From NCBI GenBank assembly GCA_023920165.1, contig CP089274.1, positions 806,001-870,000 of the forward strand: a DNA stretch of 64,000 bases. Reading direction: 5' to 3'. This stretch comes from Curvularia clavata. Taxonomy: Eukaryota. The notes under the pieces are model-generated. The model was given only the letters and a program-made list of their open reading frames with translations. It was not told the DNA's origin and ran no database searches. Within the stretch, counting starts at the first letter, position 1. Each line of letters starts with the position of its first letter. Of this stretch, positions 20,921 through 64,000 are shown piece after piece. The translations under genes and the position numbers were made by a program.

Positions 20921-23263
20921 CTTGAGCCGAGTGGAGTTTGGATGGTAGTTGAAAAATTGTGTCAAGTCTCGATACACAAGCTGGTGAGTCTCCTCCTCTT
21001 TATCTTCTATATCCCTGCGCAGTTTCCTTCTCTTTATCGACTGATTTGCCTCACTTGCAACTACGCCGCAATTCGCATCATTTCGCAATGTAAAGGGCCG
21101 AAGGATGGCTTGTTGATCAATTGCTATGTATTTTGGGGAACGCCGCAGAAGTGCGGCTGTTAGTGGTGGTGATGTGATCAGCTTGGGTGGTGGCGCCTGT
21201 AGTTCATCTGTGGTTCGTCGGCTGCGATTATGCGACTAGGGTGTGCGCATGTGGCGCGGTTGTTGCAGTGGAGGCATACAGGCATTTGAGACACTAGCCC
21301 TGCGCCTCGAAGATACAAAGGACTGTGGTCTATTCCTTTGCGCGGCTGTTAGTAATTATGGATAGCAGCGGGTGGCATGGAGCCGCGGAGAGTATTGTTC
21401 AGGTATAGGCAGACACGGTTAGTGTGGGACTCTCGATTTAGATCAGCCAGGCGGGTGGCTGCCGGCGTCACGCGCAAATAGCGACCTTGCATACTACTAT
21501 TTTTCATGCTTGAAATGTGTAAGAGTATCAGAGTGTTTAGGCTACGGGTCCGCTTGCTGTGTCGATTAAAAGATCCTGCCCATCATCAGCCCCTTCTTGT
21601 CAGCGTCACGTGCATAACCCGACGATCTACACAAGGGCTTCCCGGCACTAGAAGTGACAAGTCGTCCTGTGCACATTAGATCCTCGTACTCTAATAAACT
21701 TTGCGGTCTCTTTCGAGTAAGCAGAGTACGTTTGCCCATTGACCCAACGGCAGCTCGTTGAATCTAGCTTGTCAGAGGAACCCTGTTTTTGCTGCTGCAA
21801 TACAAATGGCGCACGAACACGTCTGTGAGCGGGATCGTTGTGCAGTAGCGACAGCGGCTGGTCGAGTGCGCGATCGAGTGAATTGACTGGGCTGAATCCA
21901 GAGCGCATAAGTCACGATCTCGGCGCGTTAAGGTTGGCATGTCAATGGTAACGACAAGTGCTGACAAGACAAAGCAAAGCAAAGCGGGAAGAGCCTGTCG
22001 AAGAAACTCGACGAGATATGTAGGCGATGTTGGGAAACTTGGTCGCTGCACACTCAACAGCGTACGACTGTTTAGCTGCGTCCGTGTTCTGCATATGAAA
22101 AAAAAAACGAAGAGACGGGGAGGAGAAGAAGCTTTGTAAAAGAAAGTATGTCATAACAGGACTGTGCTCATGTACCACCTAGGTTCAGGGATGCAGTTTC
22201 GCATCTAGTGTCAGGCGGCGGTCAGTCTCAGAACGCTAGGTCATGCTTGATGCGATTTGCTCAGAAGAGTAGGTTGCAACGGTGAGATTGTTCCATGGAA
22301 GATAGACCATCAACAAGGCGTGAGGTTGGTAGCGTTCACGTGGACGACATACCTAGCGGGAGATGCTAGTCGGGCGGAACATCTCCACTGCCGCCGTTGC
22401 TAGCCAGCCCCAGCCTCAACCCCAGACCCAACACCTGCCACCCAGGCTTGTGTACATACCGTCTACCGCCAACCTCGAATCCATATGTCGTCATCCCGTG
22501 GACCGTGTCTGTTGATGCACCGGTTGCTTTCCTTTTGTCGGCCGGGCTGAGATTCGGATCTCCCACAAGCCGCAGCCAACAGCAACGACCGAGCGGTACG
22601 ATGGCCCAGTTGTTGCTTTGCTGCACCCCGCGAGGGTAAAAGCACACAGAGGGCATGCCGCAGTAATTATGCCGTCAGCACCCCTATTCCATGGTCGAGC
22701 CTGCCCATGGCACCAAATTCCCCGATGGGCAGTGTTGGCAGTCGATGCCGTGCCTGTCTGTAGTCGCCAACACGGTCATTGCTTCCAACACCAGCAAACT
22801 TGCCCACGGCTTGGAGTTTCTCAACGAGGCTGTGTCTGGCGGAACGGCAGCGGACGCGCAATTGAATTGTGATTAGAGGCTCGTCGAGGGCCTGCTCCTG
22901 CCACTCATCGGTGCCGTTGCCCCTGACCAAGGCTCGGCATCTTTTTGCTAATTCGAGGCTATGGACTTGGCTGCTTGGTATCCGCCATTCCTGCCGGTGC
23001 GCCAACACTTCTCGACTTGGCGCGCATCAGCACCAGACAAACTACGGGATTGGCAGGTTCCACATGTAGCACTCGGGGGATACCAAGAAATTGGGGGTGT
23101 TGCTCCTGCTTCAAATACTTTTGCCATCCCGGCTCCTCCTTCTGCGCCTCAATGCTCTTTGTGTGAGGATCTCTTTTCCTACTTACCAGTCACTCGTTAG
23201 ACTTCCAACTGCCCTCTTATACTACTTTTTGTTTTAATCCAATCTCCTTCTCAGTCGCTCGTC

Positions 23264-24651
23264 ATGAAGTCCGCTCTTCTCATCTCCCTTATGGGAGCCG
23301 CCGTTGCTCCTGCACTCGCAGCAAAAGGAAACCTGGCTCCCGTCACCGTCAAGGGCAACGCCTTTTTCGCCGGCGGCAAGCGCTTCTACGTCCGTGGTGT
23401 CGCTTACCAGCCAGGTATGTGGTTGTAGTACAGAATGACAATTCCAACCATACTCATATGTATACAGGTGGTGCCTCTGATGCTGCCGATCCTCTACTTG
23501 ACATCACGAGCCTCAAGCGTGATGTCGAGAACTTCAAGAAGCTCGGCATCAACACGATTCGTATCTACACGATCGACAACTCCCAGAACCACGACGAGGG
23601 CATGAAACTGCTCGACGACGCTGGTATCTACCTGGCCCTTGATGCCAACACTCCCAAGTACTCGCTGAACCGCGAGAACGCCGACACTCTGCACACCTCG
23701 TACAACGATGTGTACCTGCAGTCTGTGTTTGCCACCATTGACGCCTTTGCTGAGTACAACAACCTGATGGTCTTCTTTTCCGGAAACGAGGTCATCAACG
23801 CAAAGAACAACTCGAATGCTGCGCCCTATATCAAGGCCGTCACCCGTGACATGAAGCAGTACATCTCCAACCGCCACGAGCGCGTCATCCCTGTCGGATA
23901 CTCGGCCGCCGATGTCTCGGAGAACATTGAACAGCAGGCTCTGTACTTCAATTGCGGTACCGACGACGAGCGCTCCGACTTTTTCGCCTTCAACGACTAC
24001 TCGTGGTGCGACCCTTCTTCGTTCACCAAGTCCGGCTGGGACAAGAAGGTCCAGACCTACAAGGACTACAGCAAGCCCATCTTCCTGTCCGAGTTTGGTT
24101 GCATTACCAACACCCGCAACTGGGGCGAGATTGCCGCTCTGTACTCGAAGAACATGACTGGTGTCTACTCTGGTGGTCTCGCCTACGAGTACACTGTCGA
24201 ACCCAACGGCTACGGTCTTGTCGAGGTCGGCTCTAACGGCGACATCACGCCCAACGCTGACTTTGACCGTCTTGCCAAGGCCCTCAAGAACACCCCCAAC
24301 CCATCCGACGACGGCGGCTTCAAGGAGAACGGCAAGGCTTCGGAGTGCCCTGCTGAGTCTGACAACTGGCAAGTCGAGGGTACCGCTCTTCCAGCGATCC
24401 CCAAGAAGGCCGCTGCCTTCATGGACAAGGGTGCCGGCAGTGGACCTGGTCTCAAGGGTGATGGCTCCCACTTTGCTGGTGAGCCCAGCGAGTCCGAGGC
24501 CACGCCTGGATCTGGAGCTCCTACTCGCTCTCCTACCCCCGGCGCCACTGGTGCTGCTGGCCAGGGTGCTGCCGCTGGTCTCGATGTGCCTCTCCGCTTC
24601 GTGGGCATGGTTGCTGCGAGCACTCTCTTTGGTGCTCTGCTTCTGTTTTAG
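23264..24651 (+). CDS. GH72 1,3-beta-glucanosyltransferase (Gel/Gas family, no X8 domain), GPI-anchored
   Basis: Signal peptide; RFYVRGVAYQPGG across intron 23415-23467; NTIRIY, FSGNEV (acid/base), PVGYSAAD, YSWC, FLSEFGC (nucleophile), SGGLAYEY; hydrophobic GPI tail. Confidence 0.96.
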
Positions 24652-24972
24652 ATGGAATGATTCGGAGTGTATGCAGCTTGGGATTGGTGAGCTGTAAGCG
24701 TGTCCATCATCAAGCTGTACAGATTTGGTAGTTTTCCCATTTGTCACCGGAGTTTCTTTGGCAGCCCATAGCTCGGCATAGCATTTATCTGCAGGCGTAT
24801 GGCCTTTTTTTTTTGTTGTGTAGTAATTCATCACACATGACTTGCTTTGCTGTTCAGTGCACTGAGATGTGTGAAGCTTCCCCTCTGCATGATGTCATTT
24901 TGAGTGCCAGGGTATGCGTAAGTTTGCTGTTAAACCCAGTGTCGATGATATTAGCGTATGTGTTCTTGTGTA

Positions 24973-25171
24973 CAGTGCTTAGCGGATGTGGCTTCCCCTC
25001 GCATGCAATTGCAACAACATCTGCGCCATACAGATTGAGTCTAGCGTTAGCCTATCAGTGCACCTGCAGCTGACAGGGAATACAGAGTATTAGTATGTCA
25101 TGTCATAAAGCAAAGCGTTTACCTATAAACATATCGAGGCCTGGCTGGCGAGACTTTGTCCCCAGCCAAAG
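24973..25171 (+). repeat. Left arm of degenerate long inverted repeat
   Basis: 24971-25030 vs 32685-32744: 47/60 identical as reverse complement. 25038-25107 vs 32579-32648: 49/70 identical, ungapped. Weaker gapped match to ~25171. Confidence 0.85.
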
Positions 25172-25677
25172 TACTGAAAATGGTAACTTTTGCACTTCCT
25201 AACGCATTTTTACTACAACAATTATTCTTTCTTTTTAAGAGCTGACGTAAATAAACTTATTCTACTCTAAAATACCCATCACTTATGTTTTATAGGCTTT
25301 AACGACGTTGCGGATGAGGTGGATGAGTTCAAGTTAGCGATTTCTTCGGTAGAATTAACATGTACTCAGACCATAACATAGGCTGAGTTTTCGTTCCAAA
25401 TGCTTTTGAATCTTTGGAACAGCTTAGACTATTTGTTGGTGCTCCAAAAATTATTTACAACCTTTATGGCGTTGAGTTGTATAAAGACAAAGCGATTCAT
25501 TCAGTTCTTCAGCGGGATCAAAACCGGAAAGATGAATCACGCCAGCCATGAGGCCTTGACAGTTATATGAGAACTGCTAATATCAAAAGTTAAGCACTTC
25601 CCACAGCGAGCATGCTTTTATTGTTTTGCGTAGTGCATAACAACTTGTATAGGTGTAATCAATGGTTATTATATGTA

Positions 25678-28600
25678 ACGTCCATCCCTAAGTCACGAGA
25701 CGCACCCCGTCGCGAGACGAACACCAGGTACTTTGAGATCAAGAAATCATAATCTTCCAAGCGCGTCTGAATAATCTACAATCTTCTATCAATAGCTTCT
25801 TAGCCTTCTTTAGCCTACTTCTATACTTTAAAATACAAAAATTACGTTGTCGTTGACGCATACACGCCGTGCGCAGTCAAGCCTTTAATTATGTCCAAAT
25901 CCAAGCCCATGCTATACAGCATGACGCTTGACGCCTAGGAGTCTGTTAAGGTGATGAACTAACTTATCTGGGCTTCTGCATGTCCATATAGGTATATGAA
26001 GTCACCACCAGCCTTGTGGTGGTTGTCGCACGCTTGTTCATGCCCGATTGCCACCCTGGTCGGTACTTGAGATCGAAGTAGCTTCCTGATGCGGCTAGCA
26101 CAGGTTGTGCCTTGCACGTATAATACAGATAGCGTGTAATTTACTTTCAGCCACTAATATGACTACTGTGGCTGTACTGACTGCTGACGCTGTTGCAAGT
26201 AAGCATATCCCTAAATAACATAACTAAATACTCCGTATTGTCATCACTAACTATCCTAACCTAATACATTCGTGCAACTGGCGCTATTCCCTGGACATTG
26301 CTCACTCTTGCCGCCTTGCTCTTTGGCACCGGTGGGCCAGCATCTCCTTCTACCTCAGTACTCTTTCGCTTTCTGCCACGCCTCACTGTACTTGTGGACG
26401 CCGTGGCTTCTGCTGTCTCCTGCGCAGCATTCTTGCTCTTCCGACCGCGCTTCCCTTTGGCTTTAGCCTTAGCTTCTTTGGCTGCCGCCTCTTCCGCTCG
26501 CTTCAGCCGTTTATCTTGAAGGTGCTCATAGCTAAACACCTGCCCGGACCCCTTCTCGAGTATGTCGGCTCTGGTTGATCGTCGAGACTTGGCTTCGTTG
26601 TTGACCGCCATCAAGAGTTGGATATGGTTTTGCTGTAGAGCGCTCTTAGTCAAAGATAACTGAGTAGCTTTGGCGAGTTTTAGTAAGTGTCGCTGCAAGT
26701 TCTGCTGGCTATTTTCGTCAAGAGCATGGGCGTCTTTTTTCAAGATGAGATTTTGCAGCAACAAAAGACCGTCTGCTGATACTGGTGTTATAGGCGTTTG
26801 CAGCACTCCATCTTCTTGATAAGATGCTTCGTTAGTCACCGCAGGAGCTACTTCGACTGGAGGTTTCGGCACAGTCCTGAGTACTCTGTCTGGGTTGAGC
26901 GGGAACAAACCACTTGCAGCAAAGCCAGCCTTGATGTTCTTAGCTGTGAATGCTCGCTCCCTGGCCGGCTTATATAGATAGGTAAAATGCTCCTTGCCGA
27001 TAGCGTTGACGCCGCCTCGCTCCAATCGTTCGACCTGTTCACGGTAGGCTGTCTTCAGTGGGCCAAATACAGCAACGTCGCAAGGCTGAAGCTTGTGAGA
27101 CGTATGAGAGGGCAGACGACACAAGATGATGTTGTTTGCAAAACAGTACTCTAAGATCTCGAGCGTCTCATGCGTCCCGAAGCCGTCAAGGATCAGTACA
27201 CGCGGTCTCCCGTTAGCACGTCCCTTGGTCTCAGGATCAAACACGCGCTTGAGCCACTGCAAGCTGATGTTGGAGTCGGTGTATCCAGACTCATTGCACG
27301 TATAATGCCATCTAGGAGTCGGAAAGGTAGTCCAGTTACTACGGTGGGTGGTGGCTGGCCAAATGATCATCGGGTTTAGGTACCTACCGTCAGCGCTAAT
27401 GCACTCAATAGCAGTCACCATCGTTCGCTTCACGCGCGCGCCTCTATGGGTTCGTTTGTCATCCTTACCTACGAGCACCTTTACCGAGCCAAGCATGGAT
27501 AGCATCACCCCAGTCTCGTCCATGTTGTATACATTCTCGGCTACAATAGCTGGATCGCGCAGTACCTCCCCAATTACCTCGAACCAGTGTGTCATCTTAT
27601 CGGCGATATTATTCTCGTGGCGGTTCCAGTCTAGCGCCGTAACGCGTCTCGCTGTCATCTCTGGATGGCGCCTCTCGAAGGCCTTTGCCCAGTTTTTGCC
27701 TGGGGGCTTGGAGGGTCTGTCCCTCACGGGCCGACCACGGGTAGCGACGAAGGCGAGCGAGGGAATGTGCTTGATTCGTACGGGCCGTCCGAGATCTGAC
27801 ATGTGTAAGATAAACTTGACGAGCGCGCTCTCTTCCCATGGTGTCAGGTACTGCTGGCTCTGTGCCTTGTCCTGCATTGAAGGCCGGCCATGAGCGCGAT
27901 GATGGAGGGTACTGCGAGCGACTCCGCCGTGGTCTGCCAAGGTACGGTATGATCTACGCACGCCAGGAGGGACGCCTTGTGCCAATACTTGCCTTGCCTT
28001 ATCCATAGTGGTTAGTAACAGTCTACAGTGCAGATGATGTCTCGTCACTTGGAGGGGTTGTGAGGCATGGGGACAACAAAGGACTCGTTCTCGTTCCAAG
28101 ACCCACAACACGCGCCACACTTATTTTTAGATATGCAGAGCAATAAGGAATAGCGCAAGAATATAATACAGCATTATGTTATCATTTTAACACAATCAAA
28201 CGCATCTCGTCACCTAGGGATGCTTCTGTGCGTCTCCTTCTCCGCACGGAGAAACTGCCGGCATCCACAATCTCGACAACTAAGCAGTACCAAACCCTGG
28301 GATAACTATCTTTCGCGCTTGCGCTGCTTCTATAGATATCCGGATATATAATAGAGATGTAGAGTCGTATTTGGACAGGGGTAAAGCAGTAGAGAGGGGG
28401 CGAACCGTCTTGAGGAAAAGATCAGCGCCATGTTCAATTTCACAAGGATCTTATTCGGAAGATGTCCTGCTAGAGCAGCAATAGTGTAGATTCGTATATA
28501 GTCACTACAACTTTATTGACTTGCGCGTTAGATTTTCCGAAGGCCCGAAGTGCAAACCCGTCTCGCCTCGGGGTGCGTCCCGGGTCTCAGGGATGGACGT
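25678..28600 (-). mobile_element. Fot1/pogo (Tc1/mariner superfamily) DNA transposon, 2923 bp
   Basis: 42-bp TIRs ACGTCCATCCCT(A/G)AG...GACGCACCCCG..GCGAGACG at 25678-25719 and 28559-28600 (6 mismatches); TA target-site duplication at 25676-25677 and 28601-28602; encloses the transposase ORF. Confidence 0.95.
26261..28006 (-). CDS. Fot1/pogo-family DDD transposase (HTH + CENP-B-type HTH + DDE_1), uninterrupted 581 aa
   Basis: MDKARQVL..ARSTLHHR..LTPWEESALV..PGKNWAKAFERRHP; catalytic motifs YNMDETG, LILDGFGTH, LQPCDVAVFGPLK; basic C-terminal tail. Confidence 0.95.
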   Translation of the reverse strand: MDKARQVLAQGVPPGVRRSYRTLADHGGVARSTLHHRAHGRPSMQDKAQSQQYLTPWEESALVKFILHMSDLGRPVRIKHIPSLAFVATRGRPVRDRPSKPPGKNWAKAFERRHPEMTARRVTALDWNRHENNIADKMTHWFEVIGEVLRDPAIVAENVYNMDETGVMLSMLGSVKVLVGKDDKRTHRGARVKRTMVTAIECISADGRYLNPMIIWPATTHRSNWTTFPTPRWHYTCNESGYTDSNISLQWLKRVFDPETKGRANGRPRVLILDGFGTHETLEILEYCFANNIILCRLPSHTSHKLQPCDVAVFGPLKTAYREQVERLERGGVNAIGKEHFTYLYKPARERAFTAKNIKAGFAASGLFPLNPDRVLRTVPKPPVEVAPAVTNEASYQEDGVLQTPITPVSADGLLLLQNLILKKDAHALDENSQQNLQRHLLKLAKATQLSLTKSALQQNHIQLLMAVNNEAKSRRSTRADILEKGSGQVFSYEHLQDKRLKRAEEAAAKEAKAKAKGKRGRKSKNAAQETAEATASTSTVRRGRKRKSTEVEGDAGPPVPKSKAARVSNVQGIAPVARMY

Positions 28601-28642
28601 TAGTTATTCCAAAAGATGAAGCCAAATTCCAAGAGATACGTA

Positions 28643-31600
28643 CTAAGTTCCCACGCGATTTTGGAGCTTGACAAGAGCGTGACGAAGCTTCCGACAACGC
28701 AGATCATCAGGCCCAAAGTGTGCCTCGTATCCTTGCAGCGCCCGCTGGTACATCTCTTCTGCCTTGTCTAGCTTCCCCTGATCAGCGTAGAGATTGCCCA
28801 GGTGACTAACCGTGTCAAGCGTTGATGTATGATCAGGCCCAAGTGCCTCCTCTCTTCCTTGTAGGGCTAGTTGGTATATCTCCTCCGCTTTATCTAGCTT
28901 ACCCTGCTTTCTATAGAGGATGCCTAGGTTGTTAACTGTCCTAAGCGTTGATGTATGATCATGCCCAAGTACCTTCTCGTATCCTTGCAGCGCCCGCTGG
29001 TACATCTCTTCTGCCTTGTTTAGCTTGCCCTGGTTTATGTAGAGGACACCTAGGTTGTTAACCGTATCTAGTGTCGACATGTGACCTGGCCCAAGTGCCG
29101 TCTCCTTGTCTTGTAGCACCCGCTGGTATATCTCTTCCGCTTTGTCTAGCTTGCCCTGATTTCTATAGAGGATGCCTAGATTGCTGATAGTGCTAAGCGT
29201 TGATGGGTGATTAGGCCCAAGCGCCTTCTCACTTCCTTGTAGCGCCCGCTGGTACATCTCTTCTGTCTTATCTAGCTTGCCCTGTCTTCTATAGAGGTTG
29301 CCCAGACGATTGACCGTGCTAAGTGTCGATGTGTCACCAGGTCCAAATGCCTTCTCTCTTCCTTGTAGGGCTATCTGGTACATTTCCTCCGCCTTGTCTA
29401 GCTTGCCATGTTTACTATAGAGGTTTCCTAGTTTGTGAATAGCCTCATACAAGCTTCCTTCAGTGTCCCGCTCCTTAATCACCACACCGATAAACTCTTG
29501 GCATCGATTCGCATGTCGAAGAAGCCGTTGCTGGATCACCCAATACTTGGGACGAATTTTGTATGGCACATGCAGACCTACACACCGTAGTGCAAGCCCA
29601 GCTAGCGCATTGTCCCATCTCTCGTTCACTACATGCTTCGTCCACGCGTGCACACAGCTGTGCATGCTGTATCCCTGCGATTCTACACTATCCTCTCCAG
29701 AAAAGGTATGCGCCTCGGCCAATCCATGATTACAGAGCACTCTTACTGCTTTGTTAAAGCTCAACTGGTCTTGTGTCAGCTCGGAAAACCATTCTGGACA
29801 GTCTCGTTGTCGGGCAGATTGCAGAAGTTCAAACCACACATCCTGATTGTCCAAGTACGCCCACAGTTGGAGGAATTTTACCGCAAGGTCGTTTGAATGA
29901 TCCATAGAGACACGATGTTTGATGCTGTCTAATGAGATTGCCCATGTTGTATATAGTGCCTTGTCTTCATAAGTAAGCAACTGCGGAGTATCTCGCTGAA
30001 GCTGAAGCCATGAAGCTTTGTACATCCGGAGGTATTCAGCAAGACTAGTGGATAGCTGATAGAGGTAGGCGCCGGCAGTAGCAAGAGCAAGTGGCAGGCC
30101 ATCTAGCTCTTCAGCCAGCTTCCGAGCGTCAGGGTCTTGCTACTATGTTAGCATTGTCTATAGGGAGGTAGGAAGGCCTACCAAGCACTAGCCCATCTCG
30201 TCTGGACGTCTGCGACAGTATCTCTAAGCTGTGCTCAATGTCCCGCAGCTTCTTTACTGCGATAGGACGACCTAGCTGCAGCTGAGATGACCGCGTCGTG
30301 ATCAACACTGCTCCTTGATCTGCTTCAGGAAGAAATGGCCGGATATCAAATGTGCCCGGCTCATCATGCCCTGGCAGCTTCGGTGTGTCGTAGTTGTCGT
30401 AAATGACCAGCCACCCGTCGTTCCTAGCGCTGCTCAGCCATCGCTTGACTACCTCCACTGCTTCGTTAAGGTTGTTGCCTTCCGCAGCAGCCTTCAGATA
30501 CGCCAGCGACGGGCGGTCGCGGTAGATGCGCCTCGCTGCGGCTGCATAGCCTTGCTTCAGCGTGTCGACGTCCTTGCTGTTAACCCAGAACACGGCCGAG
30601 TACTCATCTTTATATCGCTGCGCATATGCCAGTGCTAGCTGCGTCTTACCCATCCCACCCAGACCGTGCATGACTGCCGTCTTACGACACCTATCGTGCT
30701 GCAGCTCTCTATGGATGGTGTCCAGCTCCTCGCTCCGGCCGACGAAGTGGTCGACACGCGACACCTCGGGCACGCTGAACTGGACGGCGAACGATGCAGT
30801 AGGCTCTTCAAAATGGACTAAAATAACTTGTTACTATGGACCGCTACTTCGCTGATATGCTTCCTGCTCAAGACTACGTACCCGCGTTTAATTTGGCCTC
30901 TGTGTCCCACCGCCCATCAATGCTGGTACCTGCTTTTGCTGCCATCAATCGTAGATGTCCTGACACCGTCTTGTACCCAGGATCCGTCTTCGACCTGAAT
31001 TTGACCATGTGTATGTGGTCCGCGTGTATCGCGATCGGCTCGCTATCTGCCGCGCCCGGTACTACCGCAGACGCGCGCGGAACGACCTGGCGAACGTTAG
31101 CAAGCAGCCATTACGCATCAGCCGTCGCAAAGTAACTCACCATGATCGACTTGCCCAGCACCGTCGGCGTTGCATACTCCTCAAACGCAAACTTGGTCAC
31201 AAAATCCCCACTGATCGTCCCGTACTGGCCCAGCTGCTGCTGCAGCCACTCCGAGTCTCGCTCGAGATGCTGTAGCAGACGGTCGTCCGCCGCCATAAAC
31301 ACCGATGCCACGTTAACCATAAGCTTCCCCAGCGCGACACCACTGCCGCCTTGGTGAGGAGTGCCCATGAATAGGATGCCATAAGTCGACAGTTTAATCG
31401 CGCGGTGCTCTTCGAGGGCGCCTCGGCGGGCGGCGTCCGAGTGGATAAGCGCCTATGTGTGTCAGTCGGGTGTTGAGGTGCCTTTAACGATCTCACTCAC
31501 GCTCTTCACGATAATGCCGCCTAGGCTATGCGCCACAAAGATGATCGGCCGCTTGCTCGACTGCTCTGGTGTTATTTCTTGCTACTGTATATGATGCCTC

Positions 31601-32131
31601 GCTTGTCGCTTACCTCTGTCAACTGCCTATGAAGGCACAGGTCCGAGACGAGGCCTCTACCGTGGTCGTAGAGGTACTGGGTACTTATGCGCGACCCGCT
31701 GTGTGTATTCGCATCATAGCCCCAGCTCAGTATGCGCGCGTTGGGTAGGTCGTGCGGAAGCAGGTCGCGCAGCCAGTTGATGCTATCAGCACCGCTACCT
31801 GCCGTCCATGTCTTCTCGCAGTGCCCGTTCAGGCCATGTACAGCGACAATGCTAGGCTGGCGTCAGCTGCTGGCCGAAGAAGATCACAGTGGGACAGCGT
31901 ACTCAACAACTGGATTGGTGCCTTCACACACTACTTGTAAGCCTTGTAGGACTTCATCAGTTGCTTGTGGTGGTAGCGAGGGCGTGGCAGCTGGCTCAGC
32001 TGATGCTGAGGATGTCGAGGACAATTCGGCGGGAATCTACCTAGGTGTTAGACCGTGTGCAACAAAACGCGGTCTAGGAGACATACCTTCGCCTTACCCT
32101 TCTTTGAGCGGAAGTCAAGAAGCCGTCGCAT
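28643..32131 (-). CDS. Fungal NLR: SesB-like alpha/beta-hydrolase + NB-ARC + TPR, 8 exons, apparently intact
   Basis: Spliced by eye through 7 GT-AG introns from ATG 32131 (MRRLLDFRSKKGKAK). SesB: IVAVHGLNG, NWLRDLLP, ARILSWGYDA, PIIFVAHSLGG, FMGTPHQG, ADHIHMVKF. NB-ARC: FVGR, GLGGMGKT, WLVIYDNYD, VLITTRS, GLPLAL, YSMHSCVH. Six 42-aa TPRs. Confidence 0.92.
28700..29446 (-). repeat. Six tandem 126-bp (42-aa) TPR-coding repeats
   Basis: Recurring xTVNNLGxLYxxQGKLDKAEEMYQRALQGxExxLGPDHxSTL units in the 28643-30025 ORF. Confidence 0.95.
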
Positions 32132-32379
32132 CGCGTTATCTTAGGCTAGACCAGCAGGTGCATGCTGTAGGATGTAGAACATCCAGAAGCATTGCGCATG
32201 AAGGGCCTCATAAGGCTGTAGCGAGGCTGAGCGGCACGTAATCTGCAGCATCCTGGCGGTCGAAGCGATGGATGGCGACTGGTTGCTGTTGTTGCTGGCT
32301 GTCTGCTGCTCAGCCCCAACTCCACTGAACGGCGCTTAGTGAGCTGCTGTTAAGTATACGCTATAACTCGTTGCTCGTG

Positions 32380-32490
32380 TCGACGTTTGCCACTGTCAAC
32401 AACTTGGGCATTCTCTACAGAAGACAGGGCAAGCTAGACAGGGCAGAAGAAGTGTTTAAGTAGGCGCTGGAGGGTCCGCGTTGTTGCAAC
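32380..32490 (+). pseudogene. Isolated TPR-repeat relic of a paralogous NLR, inverted relative to the NLR
   Basis: Reads STFATVNNLGILYRRQGKLDRAEEVFK*ALEG-PRC; TAG at 32461-32463; no flanking ORF. Confidence 0.85.
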
Positions 32491-32510
32491 ACTTAGAGAT
32501 CGTACGGCAG

Positions 32511-32742
32511 CTTAGTTAGGAACTAGCTCGTTAGTAGATATCAACCTCCTCTTTTGTAGTAAGCCCTACGTTGTGACATATAAAACAATATACTAAAGCG
32601 CTATATTTACTATAAGCTGCATCTGTGCTAACAGATTAACGCTAGACTTGTTCTATATAGTAGGATAATATAATATGCTTACCATATGGCGCAAATGTTA
32701 TTGCAGCAGCGTCCGAGGAGAAGCCGCATTCGCAAAGCATTG
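32511..32742 (-). repeat. Right arm of degenerate long inverted repeat
   Basis: Reverse complement aligns to 24973-25171, with an ~29-bp AT-rich insertion near 32655-32685; mismatches mostly transitions. Confidence 0.85.
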
Positions 32743-33013
32743 TGTGGCTGCTCTGCACTACTTGTAAGCTCCGCGTGTTAGTGTTTGGAGCTTGTAGCCG
32801 CGGGGCATTATGATCCTTGTTGGTCGAGGGGCAGCCATGGAAGCTTCTACGGTCGCGCTTGCGCCTTCCACAACCTCGAAACCATTTCAACACCACACCT
32901 CAATCCCTCTAAACCGCCAAACTCCTGGAACTGATACACTATCTTCAAACGCTGGGAACGGCTGATTTGCACAGTGTCCTGAGAGTTCTGACCGCCCTTG
33001 GTACCCCGCCGCC

Positions 33014-34147
33014 ATGGATGACGCCCGCAAAGGCGACGCTGCCCTTAGCGCAAGCAAACCCGACGAGGCCATTGAGCACTACACCAAGGCCCTCAGTGTC
33101 AATCCCACCGCTGTAAAATACTACATTGGTCGCTCCACAGCCTACCAGCGCACTTCCAAGTTTACCGAAGCCCTACACGATGCCGACGTCGCCGTCCTCC
33201 TTGCCAAAAAGCGCGGCTCACGCGAGCTCATCAAGGACGCCCAGTTCCGCCGCGCCGTCGCACTCTTCCACCTTGGAAAATATGCCGATGCCGACTTTCT
33301 TCTGCGCATTGTGAAGGGACTTGATGAGAAGGACAAGATGCTGCCTATTTGGGAGACTAAAATCGCATCCAAGCTGAAAGACATACCCGAAAACGATGAG
33401 CAGAGGACAGTCACCATCAAGGAGGACCCCGACGTCGAGATACCCAGCGCGAACGCATCCGCAGCGCCGACCAAAGCCGAAGACCCGGCGGCAAAGCCGG
33501 CCCCGAAGCCTCCTGCGCCGACTCCCAAAGAAAAGATCAAGACCGACTGGTACCAGTCCAACGATACCGTCACTCTGAACATTTTGGCAAAGGGGGTGCC
33601 ACAAGACAAGGCCGGGGTAGAGATTGAAGAGAACGCTGTCTCCGTCTCTTTTCCCATTGCTGGTTCGTCGTCCGAGTACAATTACAACGCCGATCCGCTG
33701 TTTGCTTCGGTCGATCCCACGCAGTCCAAATACCGAATTACGGCCACAAAAATTGAAATTACACTGCGGAAGGCAACACCAGGTGTAAAATGGCACAGCC
33801 TAGAGCGCGCTCAGGACGCAGCCCCCGCTTCGACGCCGAACGCACCGTCCACTGTTGCTCCCGTCAAGGAAACAGCGCCATCATATCCAACTTCCTCCAA
33901 GTCAGGCACCAAGAACTGGGACAAGGTAGTGGTCAACGACCTGGATGAAAAGGACGAAATCGAAGGCGACGAGACATCACACTTCTTCAAGACGCTGTAC
34001 AGCGGTGCCACACCCGAGCAGCAGCGAGCTATGATGAAGAGCTACCAGGAAAGCGGCGGCACAGTCCTAAGTACCGACTGGAGTAATGTCGGTAACAGGA
34101 CAGTAGTGCCTGAGCCGCCAGAAGGAATGGAGGCGAAGAAATACTAG
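33014..34147 (+). CDS. SGT1: SGT1 Hsp90 co-chaperone (TPR-CS-SGS)
   Basis: N-terminal TPRs; CS domain KTDWYQSNDTVTL..TKIEITLRK..KWHSLE; SGS domain YPTSSK..KNWDK..FFKTLY..RAMMKSYQESGGTVLSTDW..PPEGMEAKKY. Confidence 0.97.
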   Translation: MDDARKGDAALSASKPDEAIEHYTKALSVNPTAVKYYIGRSTAYQRTSKFTEALHDADVAVLLAKKRGSRELIKDAQFRRAVALFHLGKYADADFLLRIVKGLDEKDKMLPIWETKIASKLKDIPENDEQRTVTIKEDPDVEIPSANASAAPTKAEDPAAKPAPKPPAPTPKEKIKTDWYQSNDTVTLNILAKGVPQDKAGVEIEENAVSVSFPIAGSSSEYNYNADPLFASVDPTQSKYRITATKIEITLRKATPGVKWHSLERAQDAAPASTPNAPSTVAPVKETAPSYPTSSKSGTKNWDKVVVNDLDEKDEIEGDETSHFFKTLYSGATPEQQRAMMKSYQESGGTVLSTDWSNVGNRTVVPEPPEGMEAKKY

Positions 34148-34160
34148 TATGGTCTAGCCC

Positions 34161-34320
34161 AAGTTCGGTTACACAACTTGTTGGAATGCTCACCAATTCG
34201 ATTTTGCGCCAAGCCATGGTGCTCCGCAGTTCGACTTTGGATGCAGCCATGGTGTTTCCAGTTCGACTTTGGAGCAGCCCACGGTAGTCAGCAGTACGAC
34301 TGCACAACTAGTTAGAACAA
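34161..34320 (+). repeat. Degenerate ~33-bp periodic array (5 units) in the SGT1 3' flank
   Basis: Units start at 34161, 34194, 34227, 34259, 34292 with heads AAGTTCGGTT/CAATTCGATT/CAGTTCGACT/CAGTTCGACT/CAGTACGACT. Confidence 0.7.
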
Positions 34321-34790
34321 GGTCTGAGGCCCATGGGTGACTAATAATTTTCATCTTATAACGACGCATAGCGAGGTGTTTGGAGGTATTCGGATTTGTA
34401 TATGAATCTAGATTCGCGCTTGACATGATAGGGCGGCTATCGGCAGCCAGTAGTTCCGCCTGTTACAAATGCGACATGTGACCTACTGTTCGAGAGCCAA
34501 TCTAGTCGTCACTAACTGCCAAGTATGATGGTCCATTACAAATGTGACATGTGCCACTGGTGTTCGAGAGCCAATGCGGACTTGGCATGCCTTACTAACC
34601 TCGCGATGTGCTTGCGCCCGAACGACCGAGTCGAGGTAGGACTAGGTTCCCCACACGCTCGTCATAGTATCTGCCCAGCGTTTTTTCTGCGGGGGTGCCA
34701 GCAACATGGATCTTGGGCATCTGATGTCGCGTTGTGTATTTCTATCTCGCGATCCGACTCACCTCGACGTAGGGTGAGCATCTTCTATAC

Positions 34791-36336
34791 ATGTTGACTC
34801 GAATCATTGCGCGAACAACACCTCGAACTATCACGACCTCTGCATTTCGCTATACTTTTAACCCAAGCATATCCACGAACCAATTTCTGCATACTTTCAG
34901 AGCCATGGCCACGGCCTCGAGAGTCCACCTCACTCCCTCTCTCGCCCCCCAACTCTCCTACTCCGTTGAGACTATCACGCCCGAAAGCGCCGAGAAAACA
35001 AGCCGACTCCTACAACTGAATCACGAACAGCATCATGTCTACTTTAATCATGAGGGCTTTCACGTTCGTCTTCCCCCCTTTCATACCATACAAGTATACT
35101 AACACTTTCTACATAGAACCACATCGTCCACCACCTCCTCACCCTCTTCGCCCTAGGCGCACCCCCTTCCCAACTTCAAAAAGCCTACGACATCAACGCG
35201 CCATACCAGCGTCCCGCAGAACCTATTTCCCCCTCCATCATCACATCCCTGCATGACCCTTCTTCCTTCCGCTCCCACCTCGGAAAAGAAAAGCACTACC
35301 ACTCCTTCCTTGTCTTTTTCCAGCAGGAAATCGACGCTAAAGGATGGGAGCAGGTGTTGCAGGAGTATCTTTTTTCAGGCACAGAAGTCGCAGAGGATTT
35401 ACTAGTGAGAATGTATGCCGGGTTTTTGCATCCGATTATTCATCTAGGGTTCGGTGTCGAGTTTAAGCAGCCGGCGATTGTGGCCGAGGCGCTGGCGCAG
35501 GGCGCGGTGCATGATAGTTGGATTGGAGAGCTGTTTGTTGAGTGTGAGAGGAAGGTGGGGGACAAGAAGGGAAAGACTGGAGAGAAAAAGTCGATTATGC
35601 AGATTCTGGAGGAGTGTAGAAAGGATGAGAAGGTCAGGGAGTCGGCGAGGTTTAGCGATGCCAATAAGATCCGTGATGGGATTATGAAGAGGGCGAAGGA
35701 GGAGATGGTGGCGTATGCGGCACAGTATGTGGTTGAGGAGGAGGATGTGGAGAGGGCGACAGCGGAGATGATAGATGCGGCTGGTTTGTTCACCCTTTTA
35801 CTTACCATTCATTCACTTTGATACATACTAACATGTGAGTAGTCTACTTCGCAGCCGCCGCCCAACGGCCGCCACAACAAGTCAAATTCGACTTCTTCTT
35901 CATCCACTGCGTCAACAGCAGCATCTTCTTCTCTGCCTTTCTCTCCCCTTCATCAGGCCTGTCGCCAGCCAACCAGCGCCGCCTGCTCCAATGGAAAATA
36001 TGGATCGACATCACAATGTACGTGTCCCGCGGCAGCCCGGAGTTGCTGCGCGATGAAATTGAAAACTACGTGCCCAAGCACAATGGCGACATGCAGGGAG
36101 TGATTGAGCGGGTCAGGAAGATTGAAGATGACGGACATGCGTGTAAACTTGTGCGCGCAATTCTCAATGCTGAAAAGGTGAGTAGGGATAGGGGGCAGGT
36201 CACGGGGGACATGTGGAGAAAGGTGGGCCATATGGCGGTGGATAGCGTGGAAGCAGGCGAGCCCATGTGGGTGAGGAGCTGTGGGTTTGAGAAGGCGTGG
36301 GAGAATGTGCCGTTGAGGGACGGAGCAAGGCTGTGA
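34791..36336 (+). CDS. HypA/AflY-like oxidoreductase (questin oxidase family, DUF4243)
   Basis: Introns 35064-35116 and 35784-35842; GFHNHIVHHLLTLFALGA, YAGFLHPIIHLGFGVE, KFDFFFIHCVNS, EDDGHACKLVRA. Arg/Thr-rich N-terminus resembles a mitochondrial presequence; alternative start at MATASR. Confidence 0.9.
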
Positions 36337-39300
36337 GTAACAAACTTGAGAAATGGGCGTTTTTTTGCCCTGTTGTTGACTGTCGTTAAATTGTTGATGA
36401 CGTTGAACGTTGATTCAATTCGACAAATGTTTCTGTTTCCATACCTGCCAAAGCGTCCAATGGTCCCAAGTTCCACCAGCCCCAAAAAAAAATCCACAGC
36501 AGGCATGGACCTGGTACCAGAGCCACCTCGTATCTCGAACCACCGTGTCTGGGTGTGTGCGTATTGTTCTATCGATCACGGGCAAGCCATGCTACGACGC
36601 AGAGGCCTATTGTTGGATAAACCTAAAACTGCCGATACCTACTATTGTCTCTAGGAGGCGCGAGGACCTTCCCCGCCAGCCTTTGTTTTTTATAGCATCT
36701 TGAATGTTGGGCGAGAGGGCAGTGAGTAGGTACATACGTAGTACGTGAACAGTGCCGAGTCGTGGGCATGTATGTATGTATGCATGAATGGATGGATGTA
36801 GAAGCCGAATATTGAATAGGCGTACGCACGTAGTTTGTGCAATGAATGACCCCCACAGGATGACGAATATGGCATGATATGCTTGAGTGGTTACAAAGGG
36901 GACCTAGGTAGCCGGGCGAACGGGGTTTTTGATCCCACATTGTGAATCAGGTGTGCTCAGGGCAAGTTTGACCTTTCTTTTCTCCAAGTGCACACAGAGT
37001 TCTGACATGAGACGAGATGGGAAAAACTTTGTTCTTTGTTCACACCAAAAGGGAAAGAGAGTACGGAGAGTATTTGGAAAAGAAAGATAGGGCCGGGTGG
37101 CTACGTCAGTGGTGCACGGGGAAGAACGTGTGTAGGTTACCTTGCTGCTCCCCCTTTCCGCCTCTTCCACTTCCCGTTCCCGCGCGTCGTGTGCGGCACG
37201 TGTCCAGGGTTAGGAAAATGTCGCACACGGGCGGGCATCGGTCAATCGGAAAATCAGAGGGTTGAATTAGGAGCCTGCTGCTCTTTGGACATTTCAAGAA
37301 GGAGGGCCGTACGAGTGCAAACGTTGGGCGTTGCAGAGTGTTTCTTTTCATAGGAGCGGGAGAGAGACAGATGGGCAAAACCGGCTGGGCAGAATGAGAT
37401 TTGAGGGGGGCAGGCTGTGTGTTTGGTGAGTAGCAGAGAGGGCGGCCGAGTGGGTTAGCTTCCGCTGTGCCTTAATAGCACAGTACGTAAGTATGCAGGT
37501 CCTGTGTTGGTTGTGCGGCGCGGTGTAGTCTTGTATGGGTAAGGGGACCAGAATAGCGCACGGGTGATAGCAGCATGGATGCCGCTTGCAAGGGAAGGGA
37601 AGGAGAGGAAGGAGACAGGTCAGGCGAGGCCTACGTGAGACGAATGGCGGCGGCTGTTGGAAATGAGGTTTTTCGTAGGTAGGCAGGCGTCTTCGGCAGT
37701 GCGTGTTGGAAGAGACGAGTAAGATTGCCGTGGGATGGAGAAACGAGTGAGAGGCGCATGTCCAGCGACAAAGGGGTTACACGGCGAAAATCTTGTTCCG
37801 TTCCTGCTCTTGTTGTCTCGACGGGCGCGTGGGTCGTGGCTGCTGCTTGCATCACTGCCTGACTGCTGCCTACTACCACGGCATTTTCTTGCTCGACGGT
37901 AATAACAACCGGCCGCTACACCGAGAATAGGCACGAAGCGTCTCATTCTAATCTCCTTCTATGGATCCCTCGTGTTGTCGTGGTTGAGAAGGCGGTGGCG
38001 GCTGCTGACAAGAGACGATCAGCTTTGCATAAGCCGCGAGAATAGCACCGGCAAATCACGCAGCCCGTAGGCGTTTAGCCAGCCGAGACTGCGCAACGCT
38101 ACTGCAGGAACAGCACTTGGCCTATTCATAGGGCCCCATGGCTCCGACATGGCATTGGGCGCAGCGAGCAAAAGAGGCGGAGAGCAAGAGGGTGTCGTTG
38201 TATGGATAGGATGCCAATGGCATTTCATCTTGGGCCATGCGACAGGAGATGGGGAGACAGCGCCTGTGGTTCACTTCATTTGCAGACGGCCGCGGTCGTG
38301 TAATATGACGACGACTACACAACTGGCGCGAGGGCGAGCAAGTCAGCACATAACCGTAGTATTGCCGCGTCCACCAGGCGCCTTGGAACCGATTGGCATA
38401 ATCTCCTGCCCCGCTCCGGCGCGCGAATCGAGCAAAGGGAGAGGCGCTCGCCGACAAGGTGGACAGGGCGAAGCAGGGCAAGGCACAAAGCCGACGGCAG
38501 CTGCATCATGACATGGGCCTCTGCGGCTAGCCCAGCGCTTGCGACAAGCAATTTGCCCCAGCGAGGGGGTTCAGCAATCATGGCGGAGGCAGCTGGAGAG
38601 GACCCATGGCAGCGACAGGTGCGCGCAGTGGAGAGCAGCGAGATTGCGATAGCTGCAACCGGCGCGCACGGAGAGCCAGGCCACCAGGCTATACCAGTAG
38701 GTCCCGGCCGCTCAAAGCCAATCCATCGCGATAAACACCTGCGGTCCGGCTGTATTGCGCCACGCCCGCCGTCATGGTCATACAGCACGATGGCATGGTG
38801 CAACAGCCCGCCGGCCCATGGTGAAGCAGACGCCTGAGGCCCCAAGGCGCGCGACCGTGTCGGTGTGAATGCTCCTCCTCACCACCTCACCACCTCAGCA
38901 TCCGTCCATTCATGGCCCCACCCCTCGCCGCCCGCAATGCAGCCATCCTGCCCTGCGCGCTGCTCAACGCCCCCATCCATGCCATAGATCCCCTTGCCGT
39001 CATGTTTCATCTTACTATCCTCGGCCTAGCCGCCGGTGCGCGCGCCCTCCACGGGCCAACCACACGCATCCTGTCTGCTTGTCAGGGACTCCCCTGCCAT
39101 GCCGCTAGCCCGAGTTTCACCCTCACTAACTCAAAATATGCCTTCATCTCCCCTAAAAGCGTCCTCTCGCACGGCCCCTCAGCCTGATAACCGCTTGTTG
39201 TTCCTTAGCACCCATTTCCCTCGCTCTTTTTCTATTGCACTTAGTCGCGTCCATTCCTTCGCTCGTCGCTCCTTTGGCTTCATCCCTCCCTTCGCTCCCC

Positions 39301-60939: not shown

Positions 60940-62596
60940 TTAGAAAACAGTGCCATCCGAGAGGATCATGATCGGCGGTTCTTTAGTGTTGGGCCGCGAC
61001 ACTTCGGCAATTTCTCGACCTCCCTGTTGATGCGAGTCAGCGTTGCTCCAATTAGTCTGGCGTCGCATTCAAACTTACCTTCCAACTTCCCGCTTCCAGC
61101 ATCTGTGCCAGGGTCAGTTTGTCTGGCCCGCTCAAGCGCAGCAACTTGTTGACTTCGACAAGGAGCTCGTCGAGCAGTCCAACCGTGGCTGCGCGCCATT
61201 CGACAATCACGTCGTCATCGGCAGTGAACATGGGAACCACCTCCATGCTTGGTTGTCCCTTTTGCTGCGCGTTGGCCTGGTATTGCTCCAGGCCGCGCTG
61301 TGCATCTTCAGACTTTAGTGTCAGGACGCCGACATCGATGAAGAGACCGCCGTTTCGATATTCTGGCAGACCGGTCAGGAGTTCGGCTCCGGCAAAGTGC
61401 ACGTGGAGTAGCTTGGTCATGGGCACCATGAGCGAGTAAGCCAGCCACTGGGTGAGTTTGTGGAATGGGACAATATTTTCCCAGGGGTGGGTTGGATGTG
61501 AGGGCATGACAGAACAAGGCCATGCGTCACCCATGGGGACGCCGTCGATTTGGGTTCTCGACGCCGGCCAAATGGGAGTGAGACTGTCCATGAGGGTATT
61601 CCAGAGGGTGGGAAGAGGAATAATGGGGACAGAGGATGCTTGTGTAGTGGGGTGTGAGAGGAGGTAGTCTGGTAGTGTTAGCGCGCAAGTCTAGTTATGA
61701 TATATCGCGTCGCACGTGTGCGTACCGAGCATGTTTCCTGGGCGTGCTTCGAGGCCAAAGACCTCTTGGTTCTGGAGGGCTTCTCCGAGACGAAGCAGTA
61801 GACTGGTCCGGCCCTCGAGGCCATCAATTGGATTCGAGGCGCTCACTTGAAGACCGCGAGCTACTGCATTGACGTCGAGCTTCTTGAGGCCGGCGCTGTC
61901 GACTTGGTACGGCTCCTTGGGGTCGCTGCTGAAGACACCAGCCTTGAACATTTCCAGACTGGCAACGGCGAGGCCCTCGCTGCGACGGTAGACCTTGCCC
62001 GACTCCTTGCTCTTGTACTGCCATTTTGTTCCGGCGCCGGCGTCGAGCAGGACGGAAACAAGAAACAGATCAAGCAAACGGCGGGTGCGCTCCTGGTTGT
62101 CGACGGTGGAGGGCCACGAGGCCATGAGCTGGTCGATTCGCGGTCGACCGCCGACGTCAAAGTGCTGCCACCTGCCATGTGGGGGGATAGAAGCGTAGTC
62201 GGGAGCATAGTCGCGCTGGAGAGGGTCTTTGTGTTAGAGGGTAGTCTAGGCAGGGCATTGTTGGGGTATGGCTAGTCTCACCTTGATTATGGAGACTACG
62301 AAGCTGGCGGCATCTCCAAACTTGCTCATGTCGACGGTAAAGTGCTTGAGCTGGTTCTTTTTTGCCTTTTCGAAGACGAGCCTGGAGCGCTCGCGCACGG
62401 CGTGGATGCTGCGCAGGTAGCCGGCCGGGTCGAGGGATGGATCTGGGGCCTTTGGCAGCGGAATGTCTGGAAAGCTGGTGGGACGAGAGCCGTTGGGCGT
62501 GGGACCAGGGGAGCGCAGGGAGCCATTGGAGCTGTTTGGCTGGCTGGTGCCAGGAGAAACCTGGGGCTTTGAGCCCTTGCGATTGAAGAGACGCAT
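60940..62596 (-). CDS. URC4: Uracil catabolism protein Urc4/Urg3 (DUF1688)
   Basis: YLRSIHAVRER; IPPHGRWQHF; DLFLVSVLLDAGAG; RSEGLAVASL; PFHKLTQWLAYSL; LTGLPEYRNGGL; VEWRA; LEAGSWK|GGREIA..SDGTVF*; three introns. Confidence 0.94.
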
Positions 62597-64000
62597 GCTG
62601 GCGCGCGGCGACGAGAGGACTTTGGGAGCGGACAGGCAGAGGCTGGTTGCGAGGTTTGCTGGGGAGACAGGAAAGGTATGCTCGAGTCGGTCGAGGTTGC
62701 TCGAAAGACGGCGATCGCCGCGCTTGTTGGCTGGGCGGGACCGTTTACCGGGAGATCCTGGGCGAAGAAACCGGAAGCGATTGCGGCGGTGGAGCTTGAA
62801 TGCAAGGGGATCCTCAGGTGGGCGGCGGCGGCAGTAGTGCAAGACTCTGTAGCAGCAGCAAAGTCGGACTCGGAGGCAGGCAGGCAGGCAGACAGCAAAA
62901 GCTTCGCGGGGACGCGTCGCCTCCTGGAGCAAAAGGTAATGTATTTGGTGCCGCGAGCATAGGCGCTGGCGGCGGGCTGGTGGTGCCCCTGGCTCACCCG
63001 CGTTGAATGGACGGCACACTGTCGAAGCGCTAGCAGGGCAGCAATAAACCCTCGAGCATGGCTCGACCGGACCGGTCGACTACTGCGAGCAGCTTGCAAC
63101 TCTACCGAACCCTCGTCGCCCTCTAGTTGCCCCCGACTATTCTTACTTTGCTTTACTTTGCCTCGCTCCACGCAGCGCCGCCAGCCTCGGCCGCCGAATC
63201 TTCCATACATACAGCCAATGGTGAAACCACGCCTGGCGGGCGGGCTGCAGGGTCTCGGCTGCGTCACTGCATCGGAACATGGGCGCACGCGATGTGTTCC
63301 CTTCGCAGCATAGTCACTCGTTCGTGCCTGGGCCATGTATCGTTCGTTGCAGGGTGCGACCCCAGTACCGCCGAATTGCGCGCGCTGCTGCTTGCAGTCA
63401 AGCCCTCTGCCCTCGGCCGCGTGCCCCTTTGGGCTCGCCGCCCCTGACTCATGATCCCTCCCCTACATCGGGGAGACGCGGGCGGCACGACTCTGATACC
63501 GTGGCCGCGGGTTGCGGCTCGGCAAATCCGCAAACCTATCTGAGCGCTCTCCTGCCTGTGCCTGTGCCTGTGCCCTCCAACGCACCCACGGCATCATCAG
63601 CCTGGTCCTGGCATATTGCACATGTGCCTGTGCAATATCACCACGGCTGCCCAGGCAGCCCATCAACACGCTGCCTGCCCAAGGCTCCCATTGTGCTCCT
63701 CGCCTGTTTTCACGCTTGCGAGCACTAGCCCTAGCTGCACGCGGGGCCGGTTCCTGTGCCGTCACTGACTAATGGCCTCTCGCTTTCTTTCGGCCCGAGT
63801 CAGGCTCATCCCAACCTCCGAGCCGAATCAATCAATGGCCATGCTGCCTCGACATGCCCATGAGCATGCCTGGCCACCAATCTCGCTCCCTCAGGGGCCT
63901 TGCAGTCGGGTCTTCCACCCGCGCCTGGCCCTACTACTACCGTCTCCATCTCCGCGGTCGCGGTGCACCCAGTCCAACACTGACCAAATCTTAACCTGAC

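Follow-up and report, generated by a model that had tools for sequence, protein, structure and literature searches.

A candidate cargo-carrying transposable element with an intact NLR gene in Curvularia clavata

Introduction

Fungal NOD-like receptor (NLR) repertoires vary greatly among close relatives, and the mode by which these genes move is largely unknown. We analysed a 64,000-nucleotide stretch of the Curvularia clavata genome (assembly GCA_023920165.1, contig CP089274.1, positions 806,001 to 870,000; hereafter the window, in whose coordinates all positions are given). Between a GH72 gene and the co-chaperone gene SGT1, an island at 24973-32742 holds an intact NLR gene flanked by two inverted repeats. 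An initial annotation, made from the sequence alone, proposed that a non-autonomous DNA element of the Pack type had captured and moved this gene. Here we compare the island with related loci and with described mobile elements, and weigh this proposal against its rivals.

In the papers cited here, the mobile carriers of NLRs are the giant Starships and the composite element ToxhAT. Starships occur in Pezizomycotina, span tens to hundreds of kb and carry a tyrosine-recombinase captain gene; NLRs are among the four auxiliary gene families strongly associated with these mobile cargo elements (PMC11162782). Unlike Starships, neither the island nor the window contains a gene of the tyrosine-recombinase captain type.

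ToxhAT is described as a class II cargo element of the Pleosporales bounded by terminal inverted repeats (TIRs) and present in Bipolaris sorokiniana, Pyrenophora tritici-repentis and Parastagonospora nodorum (PMC6737239). It is 14.3 kb long, lies at differing genomic positions and has eight open reading frames, including a hAT-like transposase gene and ToxA (PMC6737239). Its 74-bp TIRs are ~92% identical, target-site duplications (TSDs) are not detectable, and a Tc1-type transposon is nested within it (PMC6737239). A 936-residue Patatin-TPR gene in ToxhAT was placed in the NLR family by its authors (PMC6737239).

Compared by description, the island shares several features with ToxhAT. These include inverted-repeat bounds with a transition-type decay resembling repeat-induced point mutation (RIP), an NLR-family cargo gene, a nested transposon and the lack of TSDs; in addition, ToxhAT occurs in Bipolaris, the sister genus of Curvularia. 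Unlike ToxhAT as described, the island is 4.8 kb long (without its nested Fot1-like element), carries one gene, has arms of ~140-170 nt at 70-80% identity and is seen at one locus. The island NLR also differs from the described Patatin-TPR gene in having a DUF676 N-terminus and an NB-ARC domain. Since a TIR-bounded element of the Pleosporales already holds an NLR-type gene, the novelty assumed in the initial annotation is lower than supposed. The cargo reading, if right, is a variant on a known TIR-cargo theme and not categorically new. Among the titles and abstract openings returned by a full-text literature search, none describes a small TIR-bounded element with a whole NLR as its sole cargo.

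Pack-MULE, Pack-CACTA and similar elements have TIRs that enclose host-derived sequence, lack a transposase and are mobilised in trans. They usually carry gene fragments, exist in multiple copies and are flanked by duplications of 9-10 bp (MULE) or 3 bp (CACTA). Like Pack elements, the island has TIRs that enclose a host gene without a transposase. Unlike them, it contains a whole and apparently functional gene, and neither a family of copies nor a duplication is seen.

A TA dinucleotide followed by CAGT is the signature of Tc1/mariner elements, while an end beginning with CAG would also fit hAT-type elements. The island resembles Tc1/mariner elements, including long-TIR forms and the fungal impala and mimp, in the TA flank and 5'-CAGTG terminus of its left end, from which the right tip differs by one transition, and in its arms of more than 100 nt. 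It differs from them in that no DDE transposase, right TA, inner direct repeats or further copies are seen. The transposon nested inside the island resembles Fot1/pogo elements in its DDE_1 domain, its 49-nt TIRs, its length (~2.9 kb), the existence of other copies and its presence or absence between close relatives.

Results

The GH72-SGT1 interval in relatives

We examined 34 related loci on metagenome contigs picked by their SGT1 gene; eight of them, on Pleosporales-like contigs, carry both GH72 and SGT1 (tblastn). In seven of these eight (L001, L002, L003, L004, L006, L007 and L011), the two genes share a strand and GH72 is immediately upstream of SGT1; the spacers measure 494, 485, 485, 439, 439, 496 and 515 nt, respectively. 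The encoded proteins are 77-85% (GH72) and 65-77% (SGT1) identical to those of the window. These seven loci have neither an NLR nor a transposon, and no NLR match was found in any of the 34. The gene order S41 peptidase-GH72-SGT1-questin oxidase-DUF1996 is common to the window (17448-41063) and to L002, L003, L004, L006 and L007. Because this wider order is kept, the relatives' loci are considered orthologous. The eighth two-gene locus, L013, has a GH72 that is 60% identical, inverted and ~2.5 kb from SGT1, and its questin oxidase gene is inverted as well. L010 has 9.3 kb upstream of SGT1 without GH72. An SGT1 match of 87% identity lies on a 16-kb Joint Genome Institute (JGI) contig outside the 34 loci.

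The GH72-SGT1 spacer of the window measures ~8363 nt, and removal of 24973-32742 leaves ~592 nt. The short spacers of the relatives and the ~590 nt that remain after removal of the block thus identify the block as a lineage-specific insertion. The window's flanks align to the relatives up to ~24847 and again from ~32790-32804 (blastn, MAFFT). This leaves 125 nt to the left and 61 nt to the right of the repeat tips unassigned. The stretch 24848-24971 cannot be aligned to the relatives, whose own spacers likewise fail to align with one another in the middle (100-143 nt). The repeat-bounded block accounts for the extra DNA to within ~90 nt. Arm sequence has no match in the relatives' spacers or anywhere in the 34 loci, so the arms entered with the insert.

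These comparisons strongly support the view that the island is a discrete, derived and lineage-specific insertion, with predicted borders no more than 125 nt from the left repeat tip and no more than 61 nt from the right one. The initial annotation had described an island, and the short-spacer relatives back an insertion that the inverted repeats delimit to within ~100 nt. The features of the island and its surroundings are as follows.

23167-24651, plus strand: 3' exon(s) of the GH72 gene (Gel/Gas-type beta-1,3-glucanosyltransferase), outside the island; Pfam Glyco_hydro_72, E 2.4e-106; stop codon at 24651
24652-24971, no strand: left part of the ancestral GH72-SGT1 spacer (GH72 3' flank), alignable to relatives to ~24847
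24972-25108 (~137 nt), plus strand: left arm, tip 5'-(TA)CAGTGCTTAGCG; weak gapped similarity continues to ~25137
25109-25670, no strand: inner-left region, AT-rich (GC 0.36), with no right-side counterpart and no protein-family signal
25671-28607, minus strand: Fot1/pogo-type DNA transposon nested in the island; TIRs of 49 nt (84%), DDE_1 domain
28643-32131, minus strand: NLR gene, 8 exons, 1040 residues, DUF676, NB-ARC and six TPR_10
32378-32474, plus strand (opposite to the NLR): relic of an isolated TPR_10 unit with an in-frame stop; Pfam TPR_10, E 8e-5
32571-32743 (~173 nt), minus strand: right arm, reverse-complement tip 5'-(CA)CAATGCTTTGCG; weak gapped similarity continues to ~32535
32744-33013, no strand: SGT1-side part of the ancestral spacer, with the SGT1 promoter and 5' region; relatives can be aligned over 32804-32864 and around the start codon
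33014-34147, plus strand: SGT1 co-chaperone gene (TPR, CS and SGS domains), outside the island; Pfam SGS, E 2.6e-29, and CS, E 5.7e-14; ATG at 33014; product P0121, 377 residues

The block at 32804-32864 upstream of SGT1, which contains GCAGCCATGGAAGCTTCTACGG, is conserved in the spacers of all close relatives and lies just outside the right arm. The insertion spared this putative promoter element.

Inverted repeats at the ends of the island

The initial annotation reported that the two ends of the island are reverse complements, and our analyses agree (47 of 59 positions in the terminal block and 49 of 70 in the next). A repeat search of the window identified 24972-25030 and 32685-32743 as a 59-nt pair that is 80% complementary. 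When the left end was compared with the whole window (blastn), the terminal block was recovered with an E value of 4.5e-9 and a second block (25038-25096 with 32590-32648, 73%) with an E value of 1e-3. Ungapped recounts gave exactly the values reported initially: 47/60 for 24971-25030 against 32685-32744, and 49/70 for 25038-25107 against 32579-32648, the mismatches of the latter pair being 14 transitions and 7 transversions.

The local alignment of the tips scores 35, compared to a maximum of 16 among 300 shuffles. The gapped alignment (174 matches and 66 mismatches, 40 of them transitions) scores 124.8, compared to a maximum of 63.5 among 100 shuffles. Identity peaks at the tips, where the terminal 59 nt agree at 80%, then drops to 70-73% and fades inward. 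It ends abruptly at the tips, as originally noted: the 30 bases outside them agree at chance level (9/30). A weaker match had also been claimed to extend inward to ~25171/32511. This extension is at chance without gaps (23/64 and 21/64), but weak similarity persists in a gapped alignment, only as far as ~25137/32535. The similarity between the two ends thus greatly exceeds chance and is greatest at the extreme tips.

The right arm is more AT-rich than the left. It has a GC content of 0.38 and a TpA/ApT ratio of 1.38, and relative to the left arm it shows 15 GC-to-AT and 8 AT-to-GC transitions. This AT shift, seen in the right arm only, is suggestive at most of a RIP signature.

Between its two conserved blocks, the right arm has ~29-36 extra AT-rich bases (32649-32684) that the left arm does not have. 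They start with GTAAGC and end with TATAG, an intron-like pattern in a segment too short for a fungal intron, and are probably a simple indel.

Open frames enter both arms in the same register (24732-25073, plus strand, 113 codons; 32642-32899, minus strand, 85 codons). We considered the arms as coding exons and rejected this possibility. Codon positions 1/2/3 carry 5/4/3 of the 12 differences in the 59-nt block, and Pfam searches were empty; the frames are taken as chance because the substitutions show no codon bias and there are no family matches. We also rejected the left arm as a miniature inverted-repeat transposable element of its own with an inner terminus near 25590, as self-inverted alignments score only 16-17 and lie away from the arm borders. 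Neither an Rfam nor a tRNA scan gave a match in 24500-33100.

The NLR gene

The initial reading of an intact SesB-NB-ARC-TPR gene is borne out as a gene model. Its eight exons are 32131-32087, 32036-~31905, ~31850-31614, 31560-31501, 31452-31138, 31083-30883, 30818-30183 and 30136-28646, followed by the stop codon. Introns are 46-64 nt long, with GT at or next to the start of each gap and AG at or next to its end. These exons account for all 1040 residues of the annotated protein, and coding is uninterrupted in the annotation model. The product is 100% identical to P0001, an NCBI hypothetical protein of Curvularia clavata.

Pfam searches identified an NB-ARC domain (Pfam accession PF00931, residues 362-581, 26.7 bits with a cut-off of 23.5) and six C-terminal TPR_10 stretches (E 1.9e-66) encoded by 126-nt DNA units at 28710-29513. 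The match to DUF676 (Pfam accession PF05057), an alpha/beta-hydrolase corresponding to a SesB-like esterase, is marginal (20.6 bits with a cut-off of 20.3); a GHSLGG-type motif is readable in the translation.

The TPR units of the array are only 66-79% identical to each other, unlike the near-identical repeats that mark actively recombining NLR arrays.

Protein searches (ARC/linker region, 273-872 and 873-2490 residues) revealed no NLR homologue above 69% identity other than the C. clavata record. The best homologues among the matches listed are from Alternaria (P0002, P0003, P0006 and P0241, 69%), and no Bipolaris or other Curvularia protein is among them. SGT1, by contrast, has 86% matches in Bipolaris. 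As judged from these searches, the NLR appears to be lineage-restricted, with no donor paralogue visible. Such a lack of close relatives is better matched by arrival through cut-and-paste or from outside than by local duplication.

The nested Fot1/pogo element and a close relative

The repeat-bounded block measures 7770 nt, and 4833 nt without the Fot1-like element, close to the ~4.85 kb initially given. The element is ~2.9 kb long, contains an open 619-codon frame (26261-28120; DDE_1, E 3e-34, Pfam) and was inserted 36 nt downstream of the NLR stop codon.

We screened 23 sequencing runs, two of which hold most of the window (organism A), while a third, X3 (organism B), holds 0.41 of its words. 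Contigs of four runs (including X2, X3, X4 and X7) were placed on 21001-37000. X3 contigs cover 21001-25674 joined to 28623-28857, plus 29375-37000, with 83 letter differences and 24 gaps in the first piece and 100 letter differences and 5 gaps in the second. X3 thus represents a close relative that is ~98-99% identical (~1.3-1.8% different). It has both arms, the NLR and the relic, as well as the inner-left region 25109-25670 with small indels. It does not have the Fot1-like element: the joint from 25674 to 28623 leaves out 2948 nt and has 15 diverged letters in between. The element is likewise missing from a low-depth X7 contig. Nesting of Fot1 in the island, as originally described, is therefore a later insertion that is missing at this site in X3, and the element is recent because a ~98-99% identical relative keeps the island without it.

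In X2, a genome-sized run of the same organism as the window, the Fot1 bins have a summed depth of 80-160, comprise several contigs and have loose ends at 25676 and 28504 that lead into other flanks. On this basis, the Fot1-like family is multi-copy and looks recently active. The Fot1-like element is not the autonomous partner of the island, because its TIRs are unrelated to the arms.

The X2 bins that contain the arms have depths of 51.5 and 46.6, which are exactly those of the single covering contig. The left-arm bin of X3 has a depth of 127.1, compared to 119.3 for the covering contig, with a small extra contig somewhere in the bin. In X4 and X7 the arms are less well covered than the genes on either side, a difference that carries no weight.

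Origin of the island

The best single explanation of the island is a decayed, non-autonomous, cargo-carrying TIR element with the NLR as its cargo, an explanation we hold tentatively and at somewhat less than even odds. A more specific version, in which a ~4.8-kb long-TIR Tc1/mariner-like element carried a complete NLR and its promoter as sole cargo and transposed into a housekeeping spacer, is possible but calls for a little more reserve. We infer that the repeats served as transposase substrates and that the NLR lay between them when they moved.

Several observations are consistent with this explanation. TIRs stand at both ends of the island, as in Tc1/mariner elements. The left tip reads CAGTG preceded by TA and the right tip reads CAATG followed by TG; the two ends differ by a single transition in the motif and another in the flank. 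These TA and TG flanks match the initial record, and one transition would restore the duplication. What lies between the repeats, apart from the Fot1-like element, is an intact NLR and a TPR relic, with no transposase, as expected of a cargo element. The family search agrees with the initial annotation on this point.

In the proposed sequence of events, a non-autonomous class II TIR element with Tc1/mariner-like termini (TA, then CAGTG...) would have been moved by a transposase supplied in trans. Its target would have been the ~0.45-0.5-kb GH72-SGT1 spacer in an ancestor of this Curvularia lineage that had already diverged from Alternaria-like relatives and probably also from Bipolaris. The only cargo brought in would have been the complete SesB-like/NB-ARC/TPR NLR gene with its promoter. 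The arms would later have diverged by 20-30% (to 70-80% identity), the right arm drifting towards AT, and an internal rearrangement would have left one TPR unit inverted. The landing of the Fot1/pogo element in the NLR 3' untranslated region (UTR) would be recent, after organisms A and B separated.

A number of results weigh against a cargo-carrying TIR element. First, features expected at its ends are missing. A search for an intact TSD of 2-10 nt at offsets of up to 7 nt in either direction found none, only trivial dinucleotides and one 5-mer that belongs to the inverted repeat. Inner direct repeats of the inverted repeat/direct repeat type reached a best score of 7 and were rejected, and self-inverted alignment identified no sub-TIRs within either arm. 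Second, no source of transposase is apparent. The 33 small frames of the arms and inner regions contain no transposase or other family except the TPR relic (Pfam). The 64-kb window has no autonomous partner with the island's termini, and its sole transposase belongs to the Fot1-like element, with unrelated TIRs. Third, the arms form one pair only, with no further copies in the window (blastn) or in the 34 related loci. In X2, no arm copy was found at 85% likeness or more, a search in which older copies of such short arms would be missed. Fourth, a nucleotide-level empty site (a single TA at 24972/32743) was not seen among the sequences compared, and the nearest relative, X3, has the island. 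Three of the five features used to judge Tc1/mariner membership are thus lacking (the TA duplication, a transposase or partner, and a repeated family). Moreover, the inverted TPR relic beside the right arm needs an extra event, and the case rests on one decayed locus.

Searches for tip copies in the window, one with a 16-mer allowing up to 3 mismatches and one with a degenerate 14-mer allowing up to 2, each returned only the two known tips, at about chance frequency. The empty-site joint 24972-32743 is not among 15 joints listed from the sequencing runs (39 more are unlisted), which is not evidence of its absence. For the capture and movement of the NLR by a Pack element, as initially proposed, the discrete insertion, the intact NLR and the lack of a transposase of its own therefore stand, but a second copy, an intact TA duplication, a clean empty site and a partner in the window were not found.

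An unlikely alternative is that a small non-autonomous TIR element (the arms and the inner-left region, ~0.7-0.9 kb) came first and only later received the NLR segment, through something unrelated such as ectopic repair or duplication. This segment would comprise the 3' UTR, the gene, the promoter and the TPR relic, and the NLR would never have moved with the repeats. The boundary evidence applies equally to this model, and the inner-left region (25109-25670), having no right partner, could be the original interior of the small element. The island is also a proven landing pad, since the Fot1-like element entered it recently, and gene capture by Tc1/mariner-type elements is rare. However, two independent rare events would be needed in a target of less than 1 kb. 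The ~3.9-kb non-transposon insert has no recognisable junction features, with no further repeats around the NLR segment, and the protein collection holds no donor paralogue above 69% identity.

The TPR relic next to the right arm raises a different alternative, an inverted segmental duplication without any transposase. The relic and the right arm would be a degenerate inverted copy of the last TPR unit and 3' flank of the NLR, and the apparent TIRs would represent a 3' flank common to two head-to-head NLR copies, of which one has been deleted almost entirely. The order is indeed colinear (on the minus strand the TPR array of the NLR precedes the left arm, and on the plus strand the relic precedes the right arm), the divergence of the relic (72-77% identity) is similar to that of the arms (70-80%), and the arms are single-copy in the data examined. 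Nevertheless, the relic is no closer to the last NLR unit (72%) than to the other units of the array (72-77%).

Homology around the relic was evaluated by alignment scores compared to 500 shuffles. The 96 nt between the relic and the right arm, aligned to the NLR tail and 3' UTR, score 18, a value reached by 34% of shuffles. The same 96 nt aligned to the ~530-nt inner-left region give a score reached by 86% of shuffles, and the 178 nt before the relic aligned to the TPR array give one reached by 94%. In this test, the arms (95, maximum of shuffles 29) and the TPR core (86, maximum 28) exceed all 500. A gapped alignment of the relic with the last unit and tail of the NLR is faintly colinear, not above shuffles, and was rejected. 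The relic-to-arm interval is thus without homology, which weakens the shared 3' flank of two paralogous NLRs that the initial annotation had itself offered as an alternative. Identity of the arms also peaks at the outer tips and fades inward instead of being uniform, and the TA and CAGTG tips would be a coincidence. We consider an inverted duplication quite improbable.

There is only a slim chance that two independently inserted, truncated copies of one repeat family bracket an NLR acquired separately, or that a staggered-break inversion of the island duplicated one end in inverted orientation: remnants between separate insertions could lie concealed in the part of the ancestral spacer that does not align (100-143 nt in relatives) and a single locus leaves room for such events, but at least three would be needed within ~150 nt, neither arm has an inner terminus or sub-TIRs, and the same tip faces outward on both.

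If the cargo-carrying TIR element is the correct explanation, a compact TIR unit with one complete NLR would give fungi a simple means of gaining such genes. It would provide a Pack-TIR route, independent of Starships, for the dispersal and presence/absence variation of innate-immunity or incompatibility receptors, and would make it worthwhile to look across fungal genomes for NLRs that lie between decayed inverted repeats. Even on a more cautious reading, the locus is a clean case of an NLR block inserted in conserved synteny and a comparative test case for Curvularia and Bipolaris.

Other features of the window

The remainder of the window contains ordinary housekeeping genes, and the Fot1-like element encodes its sole transposase (family search, 48 frames). 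A DUF1688 gene on the minus strand (61055-63079) is split over three frames (61055-61690, 61694-62233 and 62249-63079), and the frame breaks are presumably introns.

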